NCBI GenBank assembly: GCA_008080745.1
Contig: SHMX01000001.1
Coordinates: 450,001 to 482,000, forward strand
Direction: 5' to 3'
Origin: Candidatus Thorarchaeota archaeon
Lineage (GTDB): Archaea; Asgardarchaeota; Thorarchaeia; Thorarchaeales; Thorarchaeaceae
Length of the DNA: 32,000 nucleotides
Below are positions 18,682 to 25,295 of the stretch, piece after piece (the first letter of the stretch is position 1; every line of letters begins with the position of its first letter). The notes beneath the pieces are model-generated. The model searched no databases. It was not told the origin of the DNA and saw only the letters and a list, made by a program, of their open reading frames with translations. A program made the translations under genes and the position numbers.

Positions 18682-21324
18682 CTACACTAACGGTTGATAG
18701 CCCATGTAATTGTCCGTATCTACCGAGGTCTCAGCATGTTCTAATATCCTCTTTACACTATCTAAAGCTCCAAATCGGAACAACGGTCTATTGTTATTTC
18801 CACATTGATAGGAATAGGTACAGAGTGGACATCCATCCACAGTTTTACAGTCACATTGCTTTAGTATGATTTCAGTACGTTCCAGAGCATCGTCAAATCG
18901 TTTGAAAAGCAGCTTTGATGCTCCATTACCGCCCGGGCTACCATCATATACAAAGATAATTCCAGAGTCACCCATCGATACTCCACCTATTTCACGGGTG
19001 CCACCTCCTGTAAGCATGTCACTAGACTCAATCACAACATGCTCCAATGCATGAAAAGCTCCACCATAAAGCTCAGCAGGACCCATTACTGGTCCCTCCA
19101 GTTGGGTCATTTTTCCAGCAATGTAGTCATTGATTGGCTTGACAGGTTCTGGTGCTCGAAAAGCAAATCCACGGGTCTTGAAGCTATACTCTATCGGAGC
19201 TGGAATGTCCAACCGTTCTAACACAGTACCAGAACGAGTTTCTCGTTTCACATACCCATATACAGTCTGTGTCATTTCTAAGGTACAATAAAGCATCTTC
19301 AATCCAAGTAATTCTTGTTCCTCATTTACACTGAGAATCTTTGGAAAAGTCTGATAGAGAGGACGAGTGTGGAAAGAACGATCTTGAAAAGGAACCACCT
19401 TTGCTCGTCCAAGACCAGAAGTGTACTTGAAATCCACTGACATGAAATTCTGTCCACCATGAAGATATATTGCACCAGGATGTAACTCTTGGGCAGCCAT
19501 GGGCATTGAGCGCTCTCCTAATGTCTTACGGTCAAATTTGATTTGAACAGTATCACCAATTCCCCGTATGCTATAACTTCGCCATTTCTTCTGTGCTTCA
19601 TCATAATTTACCACTCGAATATTACCCTTAGAGTCTATCTTCAGTAGCCCTTCTTCAACCAGTTGGTCTAGAGTCTTTCTTTGCTGAGGAAAGGTATCAA
19701 TATGCAATTTTCCACTAAAAGCAGCTGCAATAAGCTGATAATAACTAACAACTTCATTATCTGGTTCCATATATGCCGCATCGATATCCGTGAAATACTT
19801 GTCAGGTTTGTGCTTGTAAAAGGAAGATATAGGATCTTTTTCTCGAAGAGCCAGTATAGCTACACTCTCCTGTCCTTTTCTTCCCGCTCTTCCAATTCTT
19901 TGTGTCAAGCGAGTTATAGAAACAATCATGCTGACTACGCTATCTAAATCACCAATATCTATCCCTAATTCAAGGGTAGGAGTTGACACTAGGATTTGTA
20001 ATTCTCCAGACTTAAATTGATTCTCAACTTTAGTGCGATACTTTTTGGGAAGTCCTGCTCGATGCACCATAGAACGAACACCGATGTCACGAAGTAACAT
20101 ATTCAATACTTCAGCTTCTGAATGGGTATTCCCGAAAACCAATGTCTTGAACCCCCCACTTCTCAGCATTTGAACTAAGTTAACTATCATGCGATACTTA
20201 CTTCGAACCTCGGGATAGTACATCATGAAATGAATGGGGCCTCTTCTTGCTGATGCGGACTCGATGAGATGTGTATCAACATCGAATAAAAGATCTGCAA
20301 ACTCCTTAGGGTTAGAAATGGTAGCTGAAGCACCTATTTTTTGAAAATCTCCACACTCAAGTTCTAGACGCTTGAGGATATAGAAGATATTCGACCCCAT
20401 CGAACCAGTATACAGATGAATTTCGTCCAATACAACGTATTTTACCGTTCTAAGAAGGGGAATAAGCTGGGATCTTGCATATCCAAGATGGTAATGAAGA
20501 ACATCAGGGTTAGTAAGAAGTAAATCAGGTGGGCAATCATATATCTTTCTTCGAGCATGTTGAGCCACATCACCGTCAAATATTGCCACGGTCAGGCTTG
20601 ATTGCTTACACATCTTCTTGATTTTCTCATATTGATCTCGTGCTAACGCCTTGGTAGGATAGACCAAAAGAGCTCGAACGCCTGGATTCATGAAGCTCTC
20701 TTGGATGGTTTCTGTTAACTTCTGAATGATTGGAAGGATGAAGCCCTCTGTTTTTCCCTGAGCCGTTGGGGCTGCAATGACCACGTTTTCACCTGATCTA
20801 ATGGCATCAAATGCCTTCTCTTGAAAGAGATAGAGATTATCGATTCCTTTGCCCTTCAGGTATTTCTTAAGCCGTCTGGAGATTAAAAGGTCGTCCAGTG
20901 GGCATCCATACTCGGCATCGGTAGCAGGCATGAATTCATACTTAACTAGATAATCTATGCCAGCGTCAAGTATGGAAGAGATTCCATCCGGAATAGTTGA
21001 TAAATCAGCACCCCCTGCCCTCACTGCTTTTTGTATCTCGGTCTTGGTTTGAACACGTCCTCGACTGTGTTGTTTCTTTGTTTTTCTTCGCGATGGTTCT
21101 GATTTGGAGGATGTTATTTTTCTTGTAGTTGTCGGTGTAATATCACCAGATTGAATGGCTTTTGTGTATGCATCATACGCATCAAACAAGTCGGTGTTTC
21201 TTCCACCAATAGAGAGTTCAGCACCACATCCCGTGCAAAGAACCGTCCATACTGGTCCTCCGCGTTTTATATCCAATTTTGAGCCGCATTTTGCACAATG
21301 TAGTACTGGCACATCAATCACCAA
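18682..21324 (-). CDS. SF2 DEAH helicase, Hrq1/MrfA (DUF1998) family, with an extra N-terminal zinc ribbon
   Basis: Q motif LYLFQ, APTAQGKT, DEIH, SATI, TPTLELGIDIG, QRIGRAGR, HALEH and C-terminal C.C..GCP.C...QCGNNN; N-terminal CAKC..CTGC. Confidence 0.9.
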   Translation of the reverse strand: MVIDVPVLHCAKCGSKLDIKRGGPVWTVLCTGCGAELSIGGRNTDLFDAYDAYTKAIQSGDITPTTTRKITSSKSEPSRRKTKKQHSRGRVQTKTEIQKAVRAGGADLSTIPDGISSILDAGIDYLVKYEFMPATDAEYGCPLDDLLISRRLKKYLKGKGIDNLYLFQEKAFDAIRSGENVVIAAPTAQGKTEGFILPIIQKLTETIQESFMNPGVRALLVYPTKALARDQYEKIKKMCKQSSLTVAIFDGDVAQHARRKIYDCPPDLLLTNPDVLHYHLGYARSQLIPLLRTVKYVVLDEIHLYTGSMGSNIFYILKRLELECGDFQKIGASATISNPKEFADLLFDVDTHLIESASARRGPIHFMMYYPEVRSKYRMIVNLVQMLRSGGFKTLVFGNTHSEAEVLNMLLRDIGVRSMVHRAGLPKKYRTKVENQFKSGELQILVSTPTLELGIDIGDLDSVVSMIVSITRLTQRIGRAGRKGQESVAILALREKDPISSFYKHKPDKYFTDIDAAYMEPDNEVVSYYQLIAAAFSGKLHIDTFPQQRKTLDQLVEEGLLKIDSKGNIRVVNYDEAQKKWRSYSIRGIGDTVQIKFDRKTLGERSMPMAAQELHPGAIYLHGGQNFMSVDFKYTSGLGRAKVVPFQDRSFHTRPLYQTFPKILSVNEEQELLGLKMLYCTLEMTQTVYGYVKRETRSGTVLERLDIPAPIEYSFKTRGFAFRAPEPVKPINDYIAGKMTQLEGPVMGPAELYGGAFHALEHVVIESSDMLTGGGTREIGGVSMGDSGIIFVYDGSPGGNGASKLLFKRFDDALERTEIILKQCDCKTVDGCPLCTYSYQCGNNNRPLFRFGALDSVKRILEHAETSVDTDNYMGYQPLV

Positions 21325-21524
21325 TTATCTAAGTTTCGCATGAAACAAATCTTATCAAAGTTTAGCACTGACAGTTCGTTATTGATTGTTGCATTAAATA
21401 ATCCTATGAAGAAGGAGAAAGTAGCAATACGGTTTTTTGAAGTAAAAATAAGAGATAGTCACCAGAATAACACTTAATCGAAAAGAGGTACAAGCATAAA
21501 CCACTGATTTGCGAGGGACCTTCA

Positions 21525-22583
21525 GTGGAAGAAAATAAATTAGCTAGTCAAGCCATCATTGAAAAAATTGACAAAATAGTTGATGCATCAATAGCCTGTC
21601 AGTGGAAAGATGATTTGGAGATATCCAAAAGATATTCAGAACCGCTCATCAAGAGATGCAAACAAGACATTGCATATCATTTGGAATTTCTTGCTACTGC
21701 AGTTCGCATTGAAAGCCCATCGATTTTTAGTTCGTATCTAATCTGGGTAAAAGTACTGTTTGCCAATCTCAAGGTCCCAGAAGCAGAATTTACCAAAAAT
21801 CTAGACTGCATCAAACGAGTCCTTCCCAAATATATTACAAAAAAGCTGGCAAAGATAGCTATAGAATATATAGAAATAGGATTGAAAGAATTTTTCTCTG
21901 CAAGTTCATCCATTCCAACACTAATGGGACCTGATGCCCCAATGGCGGCTATGGCAACACAGTATCTAAACTCGCTGTTGAAAGGAGACCGTCGTGCTGC
22001 TAGTGCAATGATTATGGATGCCGTCAAAGAGGGTACAGCTATCAAAGACATCTATCTCAATATCTTTGAGAGAACCCAACAGGAGATAGGGCGACTTTGG
22101 CAAATCAACCAGATTAATGTTGCACAGGAGCACTATTGTACTGCTGCAACTCAATTAATTATGGCACAATTATACCCATTCCTGTTTAATAGTGAAAAGA
22201 AAGGACATACTATGGTGGCAACTTGCATCTCTGGAGAGCTGCATGAGATTGGTGTTCGCATGGTAGCGGATATCTTCGAGATTGACGGGTGGAATACATT
22301 CTATCTTGGTGCAAGCACACCCATGCAAGATATCATTCAAACCATAATTGATCGAGATGCTTCATTACTGGCTATCTCTGCAACCCTTCCAACTAACATT
22401 CCAAAGGTACAAAATCTAATAGATGCAGTTCGTGCAAGAGAAGATTTGGGACATGTCAAGATACTTGTTGGAGGGCGTCCATTCACGATGGATACCAAAC
22501 TCTGGAGAAAAGTAGGTGCTGATGGAACTGCAATGAATGCAGAAGAGGCCGTGATAGTTGGAAACAAACTGGTAGGAGAATAA
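21525..22583 (+). CDS. Cobalamin-binding protein with an N-terminal phycobiliprotein-like globin domain (photocobilin/CarH-like sensor, no DNA-binding domain)
   Basis: Residues ~1-125 are helical with RYSEP..RCKQDIAYHL; four-helix cap with W192-x9-E202-H203; Rossmann domain GELHEIG (H240), YLG, LAISAT, ILVGGRPF, GADG. Confidence 0.85.
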   Translation: MEENKLASQAIIEKIDKIVDASIACQWKDDLEISKRYSEPLIKRCKQDIAYHLEFLATAVRIESPSIFSSYLIWVKVLFANLKVPEAEFTKNLDCIKRVLPKYITKKLAKIAIEYIEIGLKEFFSASSSIPTLMGPDAPMAAMATQYLNSLLKGDRRAASAMIMDAVKEGTAIKDIYLNIFERTQQEIGRLWQINQINVAQEHYCTAATQLIMAQLYPFLFNSEKKGHTMVATCISGELHEIGVRMVADIFEIDGWNTFYLGASTPMQDIIQTIIDRDASLLAISATLPTNIPKVQNLIDAVRAREDLGHVKILVGGRPFTMDTKLWRKVGADGTAMNAEEAVIVGNKLVGE

Positions 22584-22586
22584 TAT

Positions 22587-23783
22587 ATGAGTCGTATAGA
22601 AGATTCGAGAGGGTTTGTTGTCATCGCTAACGAAGATGGACAGATTACACACATTTTACGTGATGATATACATATTTTTGACGAATATGACTCACTGCCA
22701 ACTCTCTTAGAATTAATGGATTCTGAGAGTGTATCAAAAGCAGAGTCATTTCTCTCAGCCATTCGAACAGAGAAGGCAATATACGGATGGGAGATGAATC
22801 TTGTAATAGATGGAAAGGTAACTCTAGTTTATTTTGTGGGGGCTGCTCATCAGAATGAAATTCTTCTCATTGCTTCTACAGACCCATATGGAACCCATAG
22901 TTATTTTGATGAACTCATTAGAATCAACAATGACCAAGTAAATGCCTTTCGAACTGCTCTAAAAGATGTCTTTCTAATGTCTACATCGGAATCAGAGCAA
23001 GTTGAAGAGATGTACACTCGATTCATGCAGCTCAATAATGAGCTAGCTGCCATGCAACGAGACCTCGCAAGAAAGAACAGAGAATTGATAAAACTCAATG
23101 AACAAAAGAGTAGATTCATCGGAATGATGGCACATGATCTGCGAAGCCCTCTCACATCCATTGTACTATTGAGTGATTTTGTCCTCTTGGGTAGTAAAGA
23201 ACGATTAGCATTAGATGAAATTGAAGCTTTAGAGCAAATAACTAAAATGAGCAAATATATGGCGAATATAATCGGAGACCTACTTGATCTATCGGTCATC
23301 GAATCAGGTCACCTAACTCTGAAGAAAGAACGAAAGTCGATAGCGGAGTCAATACAGCGTTGTGTGAAACTAAACCAGTTAATCGCAGATAAGAAAGAGA
23401 TTACGATTATTTTTAGACAGGAAGGTGATATACCTGAGCTAATGATGGATGTTTCCAAGATAGATCAAGTAATAAATAATCTGATTAGTAACGCCATCAA
23501 ATATTCGCCCGAAAACACCACCATAATAATCACTCTTTGGAGTCAAAATGGGAAGGTAATTGTAGATGTTGCGGATGAAGGGCAAGGTATTCCCAAAGAC
23601 GAATTGGGCCAAATCTTTACACCATATGGTAAGACAACTGCTAAGACAACTGGCGGAGAGAAAAGTATAGGACTTGGACTGATTATTGTCAAAAAGATTG
23701 TTGAAGCCCATAAAGGGACAATCATGGTACGGAGTGAACCTCAAAATGGGGCCACATTTTCTTTTACAATCCCTATTGAATGA
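22587..23783 (+). CDS. Cytoplasmic sensor histidine kinase (PAS-like, coiled coil, HisKA, HATPase_c)
   Basis: H box MAHDLRSPL, N box NLISNAIKY, G1 DEGQGI, F box IFTPY, G2 GGEKSIGLGL; no transmembrane segment; starts 3 nt after the upstream stop. Confidence 0.95.
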   Translation: MSRIEDSRGFVVIANEDGQITHILRDDIHIFDEYDSLPTLLELMDSESVSKAESFLSAIRTEKAIYGWEMNLVIDGKVTLVYFVGAAHQNEILLIASTDPYGTHSYFDELIRINNDQVNAFRTALKDVFLMSTSESEQVEEMYTRFMQLNNELAAMQRDLARKNRELIKLNEQKSRFIGMMAHDLRSPLTSIVLLSDFVLLGSKERLALDEIEALEQITKMSKYMANIIGDLLDLSVIESGHLTLKKERKSIAESIQRCVKLNQLIADKKEITIIFRQEGDIPELMMDVSKIDQVINNLISNAIKYSPENTTIIITLWSQNGKVIVDVADEGQGIPKDELGQIFTPYGKTTAKTTGGEKSIGLGLIIVKKIVEAHKGTIMVRSEPQNGATFSFTIPIE

Positions 23784-23861
23784 CATTGGTATATCCAAAG
23801 GGTTTTAAGCATTTGTGCAAAAATCATGCACAGACGCCCCCTACCACGGGAGATGGATAAT

Positions 23862-24215
23862 ATGGTAGAAGAAATTAAAGCAGACGAACTTGAGAAAATT
23901 GTATCGGAAAACAAAGTAGTCTTTCTGGACTGTCACGCTACTTGGTGCGGGCCTTGTAAGACACTTAGCCCAATTCTTGAAGAGTTAGATGAAAAATTTG
24001 CCGAGAAAGGACTGAAGGTAGTTAAGTTGGATGTTGATCAAAACAGAGAATTCAGCATGACCCATCAGGTCACTGGTGTACCCAGTGTTTTCGTATACAG
24101 TGAAGGAAAGCAAGTAGTATTTGACGATGGCAAGGGTCAGAAGATGGATAGATTAGTGGGAGTAATGCCACCCGAAATCTACTCACAGATAGCAGAAGAA
24201 CTCTTGACAGCGTAA
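23862..24215 (+). CDS. trxA: Thioredoxin
   Basis: WCGPC active site and GVP cis-Pro loop; start placed at MVEEIKADE (track ORF begins at 23826). Confidence 0.93.
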   Translation: MVEEIKADELEKIVSENKVVFLDCHATWCGPCKTLSPILEELDEKFAEKGLKVVKLDVDQNREFSMTHQVTGVPSVFVYSEGKQVVFDDGKGQKMDRLVGVMPPEIYSQIAEELLTA

Positions 24216-24317
24216 ATAATTATGTTCAAAGCACCAAAGGGATACCGTCTCTTTGGTCATTCTCTCTTTTTCCGGAATTACTAGTAACATTCATAGGTCT
24301 TAGCGTATTCTGTTTTC

Positions 24318-24686
24318 ATGGTTACCATGGTAAAAGATGTAGGTCCTAAAGAAATCGAAGATATAATCAAAGACACGAGGCTTGTGTTTGTTGATTGTTG
24401 GGCTCCTTGGTGTGGTCCCTGCCGAGCACTTGCACCAGTTTTAGAGGAGTTGGAAACGGAATACGAAGATAATCCAGATGTAAAAATTCTAAAGTTAAAT
24501 ACAGAAGATCATCGTAGTTACGCAGTAGAGAAACGAATTACTGCAATTCCCTGTGTTCTTGTCTTTTTAGATGGAAAACCAGCAAGCTTTGTAGACCCAT
24601 CAAGTGGAAAAGAGGAGAAAACAGATAGATTGATTGGTCTTGCAGGACCAGAGCGATACAAAACGGTAATTGAGAACTTATTATGA
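24318..24686 (+). CDS. trxA: Thioredoxin (second tandem paralogue)
   Basis: WAPWCGPC and AIP loop. Confidence 0.93.
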   Translation: MVTMVKDVGPKEIEDIIKDTRLVFVDCWAPWCGPCRALAPVLEELETEYEDNPDVKILKLNTEDHRSYAVEKRITAIPCVLVFLDGKPASFVDPSSGKEEKTDRLIGLAGPERYKTVIENLL

Positions 24687-24690
24687 TAGG

Positions 24691-24710
24691 GGATTCCAAA
24701 AATGGAATCC
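24691..24710. terminator. Hairpin just after the second thioredoxin stop
   Basis: GGATTCCA-AAAA-TGGAATCC, a perfect 8-bp stem 4 nt after the stop; no adjacent U-tract. Confidence 0.35.
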
Positions 24711-24770
24711 ACCTGTAGACTTTATTAACCAGAGAGGACTCTATCATCTAAGACACAAGAGGTGCAATAC

Positions 24771-25295
24771 ATGCCCATTCTACCATACGGTGATAAAACT
24801 CCAAGTATTGATTCTGAAGCATATGTAAGTCCACAAGCAACTATTGTGGGAGATGTAGAGCTATCCAAAGGTGTTAGTATTTGGCCAGGTGCTGTTATCC
24901 GTGGCGATATGGCATCTGTAAGAATTGGCGAGTATAGTTGTGTTCAGGATAGTGTTGTCATCCATGCACATTCAGAAGATAACCCTGCAATTATTGGAAA
25001 CTATTCAATAGTCAGTACTGCATCTGTACTCCATGGAGTATATATTGGGGATTCCAGCGTCATAGGGGAGGGCTGCGTCATTTTTGATGGTGCGACCCTT
25101 GGTGAAGGTGTTATGATAGCACCAGGAAGCATTATTCCAGCTAATATAGTGATTCCACCTCGAAGTCTGAACTCTGGTGTTCCTGCATCTCAAATTAGGG
25201 AGATTTCAAAAGACGAAGTTGAAAAACAGAGAATGAAAGCTGAAACTATTTCTGATGTATTCAAGAAATTGAAGCAGTGGCAACGTACTATCTAA
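24771..25295 (+). CDS. Gamma-carbonic-anhydrase-like left-handed beta-helix protein
   Basis: P.I...AYV.P.ATIVGDV, IWPGAVIRGD, hexapeptide repeats, GVPA..IR; GAGGTG RBS before ATG 24771. One of the three zinc histidines is missing. Confidence 0.88.
   Translation: MPILPYGDKTPSIDSEAYVSPQATIVGDVELSKGVSIWPGAVIRGDMASVRIGEYSCVQDSVVIHAHSEDNPAIIGNYSIVSTASVLHGVYIGDSSVIGEGCVIFDGATLGEGVMIAPGSIIPANIVIPPRSLNSGVPASQIREISKDEVEKQRMKAETISDVFKKLKQWQRTI

Follow-up and report, generated by a model that had tools for sequence, protein, structure and literature searches.

A 32,000 nt stretch of DNA from Candidatus Thorarchaeota archaeon, called here the window (positions 450001–482000 of contig SHMX01000001.1, or C1, of assembly GCA_008080745.1), contains two adjacent genes, A and B, that represent a real, intact and well-conserved two-gene signalling module. 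The family to which the module belongs has been described both by bioinformatics (2021) and by in vitro work (2024). Gene A (positions 21525–22583, + strand) is an open reading frame (ORF) of 352 aa with a GTG start, and gene B (positions 22587–23783, + strand) is an ORF of 398 aa with an ATG start. The pair is probably a split photoreceptor kinase that consists of a photocobilin, A, and a cognate cytoplasmic histidine kinase, B, under light control. It is a compact, soluble, two-protein example of a photocobilin-kinase system from an Asgard archaeon.

That A and B form a functional module, with A as the likely detachable sensor, is supported because the two genes are very strongly co-conserved across phyla, A is fused to a kinase in some genomes, the gene junction has the geometry expected of coupling, the pair is gained or lost as a unit, and the PAS subtype of B occurs exclusively with A. 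A sequence-only reading of the window had proposed the pair as an undescribed system. That proposal does not hold, since the photoglobin-B12 sensor and its association with neighbouring histidine kinase genes were described by Schneider et al. in 2021 (PMC8717448) and photocobilins were characterised biochemically and structurally by Zhang et al. in 2024 (PMC10979010). The PAS subtype, the strict A-then-B arrangement with its fusions, and the clean presence/absence site may go beyond the accessible literature, although figures of PMC8717448 could depict some of these features.

Gene A

The N-terminal part of A (positions 21525–21899, + strand; residues ~1–125) is assigned to a photoglobin domain, i.e., a phycocyanin-like, non-haem globin. 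Residues 8–117 match the Pfam family Phycobilisome (PF00502) with 22.4 bits, which is barely above the cut-off of 22.2, and a PF00502 match is precomputed for many A homologues. Residues 18–102 align weakly (11 bits, HMMER) with the globin domain of PDB entry 8j2x, and residues 1–125 are all-helical in the AlphaFold2 model. In the HMMER alignment with 8j2x, where the numbering offset was checked on W61/E71/H72, D48 (21666–21668, + strand) and W74 (21744–21746, + strand) align with Asp270 and Trp296, the biliverdin ligands of the photocobilin SasPcob. D48 and W74 are thus putative equivalents of the bilin ligands, as suggested by a low-scoring globin alignment.

A B12-binding_2 four-helix bundle follows (positions 21945–22184, + strand; residues 145–216; Pfam 53.5 bits, above the cut-off). 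Within it is the adenosylcobalamin (AdoCbl) photoreceptor motif W192-x9-E202-H203 (22098–22133, + strand), and the sequence WQINQINVAQEH begins at residue 192. The Rossmann-type B12-binding domain is at positions 22206–22553 on the + strand (residues 230–343; 78.6 bits, above the Pfam cut-off). Here the segment ELHEIG, which begins at residue 238 (E238-L-H240-E-I-G), contains H240 (22242–22244, + strand), the predicted lower axial cobalt ligand. In an alignment of 24 A homologues there is no variation at W192, E202, H203, E238, H240, D48 or W74. The W-x9-EH and E/DxH motifs are common to CarH and photocobilins (PMC10979010).

A comparison of A with PDB sequences gives the photocobilins 8j2x and 8j2w as top matches (E 1e-29), together with 8j2y. 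AlphaFold2 gives a compact model of A with high confidence (pLDDT 93.8, pTM 0.89), in which the B12 module fits 8j2w to 1.9 Å over ~205 columns. The Foldseek alignment is sequential and the permuted globin is not alignable, so that the structural match to photocobilins concerns the B12 module only. There is no hydrophobic stretch of membrane-helix length in A, the maximum 19-residue Kyte-Doolittle mean being 1.29. Judged by its motifs and models, A is a stand-alone photocobilin-type sensor with a globin packed against a CarH-type AdoCbl module. In photocobilins AdoCbl and biliverdin are bound close to each other; the proteins are sensitive to green as well as red light and regulate the activity of enzymes, and the domain order globin-then-B12 is that of one of the three photocobilin groups (PMC10979010). 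The globin domain is the photoglobin of PMC8717448, where photoglobin plus B12-binding_2 plus B12-binding is given as the commonest architecture. A may load its chromophores in a similar way.

Other identities of A were evaluated and rejected. A MerR-type helix-turn-helix (HTH) domain was not found in A with Pfam, and a CarH-type repressor is rejected on this ground; the NCBIfam CarH model, with a cut-off of 400, scores only 61 bits and covers no more than the B12 part. The possibility that A is an ordinary corrinoid methyl carrier of the MtbC/MtgC/MtaC type, next to a kinase by chance, is very improbable. Many homologues are labelled in databases as, e.g., 'methanogenic corrinoid protein MtbC1', and there are partial matches to NCBIfam corrinoid-protein models. 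These matches score 24–63 bits against cut-offs of 215–450 (e.g., 62.9 bits versus 370 and 58.4 versus 350) and are limited to the B12 module. In addition, A has an N-terminal globin and the photoreceptor motif, no methyltransferase adjoins it, and the adjacency of a kinase is conserved in most of the 80 species surveyed below, fusions included. Several MtbC-like corrinoid proteins are present elsewhere in the host genome.

Gene B

B is a soluble sensor histidine kinase of the HisKA type, as read from its domains and motifs. The HisKA (dimerization and histidine phosphotransfer, DHp) domain is at positions 23103–23309 on the + strand (residues 173–241; Pfam 46.7 bits) and has the phospho-acceptor H183 (23133–23135). 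The HATPase_c catalytic domain is at positions 23448–23777 on the + strand (residues 288–397; Pfam 95 bits). The H box (H183 in HDLRSP), the N box (N298–N302), the G1 box DEGQG (D330–G334) and the G2 box GLGL (362–365) are invariant in 33 homologues. The absence of a transmembrane helix, which had been noted from the sequence, is borne out: B lacks a hydrophobic segment that could span the membrane, and its maximum 19-residue Kyte-Doolittle mean is 1.32.

The N-terminal domain of B (positions 22587–22886, + strand; residues ~1–100) has a PAS fold, with invariant W68 and G85 and a near-invariant F55. The first ~130 residues have no sequence match in Pfam or the PDB; the Pfam PAS models fail and the PDB matches are at chance level (E > 1). 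The AlphaFold2 model of residues 1–132, built with 38 homologues, has a pLDDT of 87.9 and shows strands at 9–15, 19–26, 64–74, 77–88 and 91–97 and helices at 40–43 and 46–62. This is the PAS topology with a five-stranded antiparallel sheet. All of the 50 best Foldseek matches of this model in the PDB are PAS domains (top E 1e-5, TM 0.55–0.7), and the PAS-like N-terminus that had been proposed for the kinase is therefore supported by structure, with no match at the level of sequence.

Between the PAS domain and the kinase core is a helical linker (positions 22890–23102, + strand; residues ~102–172), a signalling helix that runs into the DHp domain. The model has helices at 102–112 and 116–131, and a heptad-like stretch, LNNEL..QR.LA.KN.EL..LN, is conserved at residues ~139–172 in the alignment of 33 homologues. 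The linker is a probable coiled coil by these two lines of evidence. A coiled coil ahead of an intact H box, as the sequence-only reading had described it, agrees with the modelled helices, the heptad-like block and H183 in HDLRSP.

A further HisKA match in the host genome (C3:375913–376074) lies within a 404-aa frame that carries one in-frame TAG. A damaged kinase gene, an error of sequencing or a recoded stop codon could each account for the TAG.

Conservation of the pair across genomes

The junction of the two genes (positions 22574–22586, + strand) consists of AGGAGA at 22574–22579, the TAA stop of A at 22581–22583 and the spacer TAT at 22584–22586, which confirms that the kinase starts 3 nt past the stop of the B12 protein. 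AGGAGA lies within the 3' end of A and is 7 nt from the ATG of B (22587). This geometry fits translational coupling.

Loci homologous to A were collected by a profile scan with an alignment of A homologues (A1), with one genome per species. At least 586 loci were found, and the best-scoring 80 were kept. These are from at least 12 phyla, i.e., Acidobacteriota, Chloroflexota, Verrucomicrobiota, Planctomycetota, Bacillota (including Heliobacterium), Thermodesulfobacteriota, Myxococcota, Bacteroidota, Calditrichota, Spirochaetota, Gemmatimonadota and Pseudomonadota. The archaea among the 80 are one Methanotrichaceae archaeon and one 'uncultured archaeon'. The 80 loci were searched separately for the N-terminal domain of B and for its kinase core. 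A B-like gene of ~400 aa with the PAS domain and kinase core is directly 3' of A in 43 loci, often with a gap of -4 (ATGA overlap). A shorter kinase without the B-type PAS takes this place in 11, and in five a single ORF encodes A together with a kinase core. The B-type PAS is joined to another C-terminus in nine loci. The partner gene is truncated by the contig end in two, there is no room 3' of A in two, and no such partner is found in eight. The neighbourhood survey thus shows the pair to be strongly conserved.

Five of the nine partners with another output are GGDEF diguanylate cyclases, and one of these five also has a GAF domain. The other four are two kinases of different types, a protein with a further PAS domain only and a protein without a Pfam match. 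The presence of the B-type PAS on varied outputs beside A implies that this PAS is modular and goes with the sensor irrespective of the output. A profile of the B-type PAS (A3) matches four of the 201 Asgard genomes sampled, and each match is directly 3' of an A homologue. Full-length A itself is found in about nine of the 201.

Of the same-strand genes 3' of B in bacteria, 17/34 have an N-terminal receiver domain, typically in a receiver-PAS-histidine kinase (REC-PAS-HK) arrangement. The gene 5' of A is an ABM-type monooxygenase in 13 survey loci (e.g., L032:5687–5986), and the photoglobin-B12 neighbourhoods of PMC8717448 also include ABM genes. The window locus has neither an ABM gene 5' of A nor a receiver gene 3' of B.

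In a second Asgard family a Pyridox_ox_2 gene (a PNPOx-like split barrel) is located just 5' of an A homologue on the same strand (L094:7152–7649, - strand; L096:3146–3628, + strand). The PNPOx-like and ABM folds both include haem-degrading enzymes, and such neighbours may supply bilin. Neither of the two genes is present at the window locus. In the cultured phototrophs Heliobacterium mobile (L056:7077–9119) and H. chlorum (L069:7100–9142) the cassette has a longer, 680-aa B-like kinase; these species may be tractable hosts for the study of A and B. The Methanotrichaceae locus (L020, a metagenome-assembled genome, MAG), with A at 1324–2352, has a partner that combines the B-type PAS with a HisKA_2 kinase.

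The presence/absence site and the origin of the pair

A and B form a ~2.3-kb presence/absence unit (positions 21325–23861 of the window) between a helicase gene and the gene for thioredoxin-1, as determined by comparison with related loci (L107–L134). The helicase beside A is found in 60/61 genomes of the host family. About 24 of the 29 relatives inspected have the helicase, ~150 nt, and then thioredoxin-1, thioredoxin-2 and a hexapeptide-repeat gene, without A and B. The pair is located exactly between the helicase and thioredoxin-1 in three genomes: the host, a member of the same genus (A 71% identical) and a member of another genus (A 49% identical). In this other genus the pair is present in one genome (G140) and absent from a second (G202). 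Proteins that flank the site are ~70% identical between relatives. In one genus of the family the site has an ORF of ~340 aa without a Pfam match that is co-directional with the helicase (L116:420–1445, L118:432–1448 and L130:4248–5276).

The sequence-only reading had suggested that the pair may be a bacterial cassette acquired by horizontal transfer. As a recent event this is improbable. The patchy distribution in Asgard genomes is in its favour, as are the insertion or deletion of the pair as a unit in conserved synteny, with one genus both having and lacking it, and the far wider spread of the family in bacteria. The base composition speaks against it: the GC content and the GC content at third codon positions (GC3) are 0.40 and 0.34 in A and 0.385 and 0.34 in B and match those of the neighbouring genes. 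The same site and flanks are also kept around an A protein that is only 49% identical. Divergence of A is 29% against 15% for the helicase in the near relative and 51% against 31% in the far relative, and this similar ratio is expected under vertical descent with losses.

The phylogeny of A likewise does not show the transfer. A maximum likelihood tree was made from 89 A sequences; it is unrooted, its bacterial sample is that of the 80 best-scoring loci, and several of its Asgard sequences are long-branched and of unusual composition. The A protein of the window pairs with that of a Lokiarchaeota MAG (support 99), and the next grouping is with the family member from the other genus and the second Asgard family (support 88). 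The nearest relatives are thus Asgard, and 76 bacterial sequences and one from Methanotrichaceae form their own group of 77 rows (support 91). Constraint of 10/10 Asgard sequences to one clade gives a higher likelihood and is not rejected by the approximately unbiased (AU) test (p-AU 0.765). An ancient transfer, in either direction, is compatible with these results. The A sequence of the Methanotrichaceae MAG sits among Chloroflexota, apart from the Asgard sequences, and looks like a separate bacterium-to-archaeon transfer.

Complex prediction and proposed mechanism

The sequence-only reading had the B12 protein control the kinase by binding to its PAS and coiled-coil region. The module with its detachable sensor and the reuse of the PAS on other outputs agree with this view, and modelling of the complex points weakly to direct binding. 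The prediction of A with residues 1–250 of B has an ipSAE of 0.37, and the highest of three controls has 0.00. Contacts are shared between the runs to at least 69%, with a partner pLDDT of at least 69. In the calibration the mark is reached by 58/80 solved complexes and by 2/110 mismatched pairs, and where it is reached at an ipSAE of 0.60 or less, this is by only 7/80 solved complexes plus both of the mismatches that pass. The prediction therefore contributes little on top of what the genomes show.

The following mechanism is proposed for the split photoreceptor kinase. A and B would be co-transcribed and are probably translationally coupled. In the dark, A loaded with AdoCbl would keep B in one activity state by contact with the PAS domain or the signalling helix. 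Green light would break the Co-C bond of AdoCbl, and red light would do likewise by way of an optically coupled bilin, if bound. A change in the conformation or oligomeric state of A would then change the autophosphorylation of B at H183. The phosphoryl group would pass to a receiver encoded elsewhere in the genome, for which the candidates are the five REC-...-HK proteins with an N-terminal receiver and the single receiver of 127 aa. The analysis shows the identities of the domains, the chromophore motifs and the genomic coupling of the pair, from which the loading of chromophores, light as the signal, the direct contact of A with B, the sign of the regulation and the phosphoacceptor are inferred. 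If binding and light control are true, the pair would be a ready-made kinase switch controlled by green or red light and, in Lokiarchaeia, would add another kind of light sensing to that by rhodopsins. Comparative handles are available in the PAS subtype that accompanies the sensor, in the natural fusions of sensor and kinase, and in the clean presence/absence site within one archaeal family.

Several observations weigh against a light-controlled pair of this kind. By the calibration above, most weak passes in complex prediction are false, except where the pairing was likely to begin with. The 11 survey cassettes with kinases that lack the PAS domain indicate that the contact need not go through this domain. 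In the searchable literature no photocobilin-kinase pair was found to have been studied by experiment. The pair has no linked receiver, and a hidden Markov model (HMM) of 17 cassette-linked N-terminal receivers finds six host receivers alike (55–64 bits) and singles out none of them. Bilin loading is doubtful in this host because neither a haem oxygenase (PF01126) nor an ABM enzyme (PF03992) was found in its genome (3.16 Mb in 19 contigs, 98% complete), though absence of bilin synthesis is not proven by this. The probable source sample is labelled as a marine sediment metagenome, where light may be scarce.

The whole-genome search for Response_reg gives eight matches, none of them in the window, and so upholds the statement that no receiver gene lies within the 32 kb. 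The eight receiver domains belong to loci at C1:440183, C6:46237, C3:426686, C6:159911, C3:90009, C4:203364, C6:110639 and C1:244549. The nearest receiver is at C1:440198, about 31 kb from the pair. Its protein (C1:440183–443113), which is encoded ~7 kb before the start of the window, has 976 aa, an N-terminal receiver and a REC-...-HisKA architecture. This architecture is the same as that of the gene usually found after B in bacterial cassettes, and four similar proteins are encoded elsewhere in the genome. The receivers of the host include five REC-...-HK proteins with the receiver at the N-terminus, one stand-alone receiver of 127 aa and one classical hybrid kinase.

With respect to cofactors, the host encodes an adenosyltransferase of the CobA/BtuR type together with six other B12-binding proteins and for this reason can make or handle AdoCbl. 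An adenosyltransferase of the PduO type (PF01923) was not found in the 98%-complete genome. One weak PNPOx-like match (27.9 bits) is present elsewhere in the genome. No RNA runs that carry this DNA are listed; the only runs are two of one study, possibly the source of the DNA.

The main rival to the split photoreceptor kinase is the same module with a dark function, in which A responds to the form or availability of cobalamin, to redox state or to oxygen in dark, anoxic sediment. A model for such non-light sensing is provided by AerR/PpaA and AppA (SCHIC) with their B12-binding or B12-like domains, and A has a weak sequence match to AppA (4heh/4hh3; E about 1e-3). The marine sediment label of the probable source and the lack of a detected haem oxygenase or ABM enzyme for bilin supply are consistent with a dark signal. 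So is the position of the pair next to two thioredoxin genes in 3/3 genomes that carry it at the site, but the thioredoxins are at this site in about 24 relatives without A and B as well, which means that the adjacency predates the module or is independent of it. The full W-x9-EH and E-x-H signature of A is tied in the literature to light-responsive AdoCbl binding, the Asp and Trp of the bilin site are retained and invariant across the family, and close homologues are found in phototrophs and surface-dwelling taxa (Heliobacterium, Chloroflexota). On balance a dark function is unlikely. If it were nonetheless the case, the pair would provide a dark function for the B12/globin scaffold.

A more specific idea may be put forward tentatively. 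The PAS domain of B may define a PAS subfamily that is dedicated to docking stand-alone photocobilins, or to receiving their signal, and that couples them interchangeably to histidine kinases or diguanylate cyclases. In a sediment host without a recognisable haem oxygenase the sensor may use AdoCbl alone, or it may report on cobalamin or redox state in place of light, which would be a non-photic use of a photoreceptor scaffold in an Asgard archaeon.

Comparison with known systems

SasPcob from Saccharothrix syringae (8J2W/8J2X) is similar to A in several respects. It is a stand-alone protein with a CarH-like B12 module and a photoglobin, it has the W-x9-EH and E/DxH motifs (PMC10979010), and the Asp and Trp that serve it as bilin ligands are also found in A. 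It regulates an enzyme in trans by protein-protein contact, and the class of enzyme regulated in trans by a stand-alone photocobilin in vitro is the GGDEF diguanylate cyclase (PMC10979010). The two proteins differ in that sequence identity is ~30% and confined to the B12 module, and the domain order is B12-then-globin in SasPcob and globin-then-B12 in A, both of which are recognised orders (PMC10979010). The neighbourhood of SasPcob has STAS/SpoIIE genes, whereas a PAS-HK gene is beside A, and the host of A is an Asgard archaeon without a recognisable haem oxygenase.

The photocobilin-diguanylate cyclase fusion AbDPcob (8J2Y) resembles the A-B pair in that a photocobilin module controls a signalling enzyme, attached or added. 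Light raises its activity more than 10-fold (PMC10979010). It also resembles the five survey cassettes in which A is paired with a protein of B-type PAS and GGDEF. In the A-B pair, by comparison, the output is on a polypeptide of its own and is a histidine kinase. The position of the bilin-binding Asp is occupied by His in AbPcob, which is a poor binder of biliverdin (PMC10979010), whereas A retains the Asp (D48).

The photoglobin-B12 loci of PMC8717448 have the same architecture as A, and sensor kinases, response regulators, GGDEF proteins, ABM enzymes and haem oxygenase dominate their neighbourhoods; archaeal members are noted as well. In that paper PAS domains are treated generically and no experiments on the loci are given, whereas the PAS subtype, the A-then-B order with its overlap of stop and start codons and the presence/absence site are worked out here. 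CarH/LitR (5C8D etc.) has the same B12 module and photoreceptor motifs as A, and the structures match. The difference is that A has a globin in place of a MerR-type DNA-binding domain and that its output is a kinase and not DNA binding.

In the AppA(SCHIC)-PpsR and AerR-CrtJ systems a B12-binding or B12-like protein with a four-helix bundle and a Rossmann domain binds and controls a partner that has PAS domains. AppA (4heh/4hh3) is recovered with A as noted above, and PpsR (4hh2) is among the fold matches of the B PAS domain. The partners in these systems are transcription factors and not kinases, and no globin domain is present. The likeness to AppA-PpsR is by analogy a lead for the binding mode of A and B and is distinct from a tested homology of the complexes.

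Flanking genes

The left border of the A-B site is a helicase gene on the - strand (positions 18682–21324; DEAD/Helicase_C/MZB), which is outside the module. It is separated from A by an intergenic region of 200 nt (positions 21325–21524) between the divergent genes. Presumably both promoters are located in this region, and GAGGG is present ~8 nt 5' of the GTG of A. A further flanking gene on the - strand is DUF5591/PUA (ArcS-like). On the right border, also outside the module, are two thioredoxin genes on the + strand (positions 23862–24215 and 24318–24686). The identities of the flanking genes are the Pfam labels of syntenic orthologues. On these labels the position of the pair between a divergent helicase/archaeosine group and thioredoxins, as well as the gap of ~200 bp upstream of A, was described correctly in the sequence-only reading.

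The block of thioredoxin-1, thioredoxin-2 and the hexapeptide-repeat gene that lies 3' of B (window positions 23862–25295) keeps its order and orientation throughout the family. A TTTTAAG sequence ~55 nt 5' of the ATG of thioredoxin-1 suggests that this block has its own promoter.

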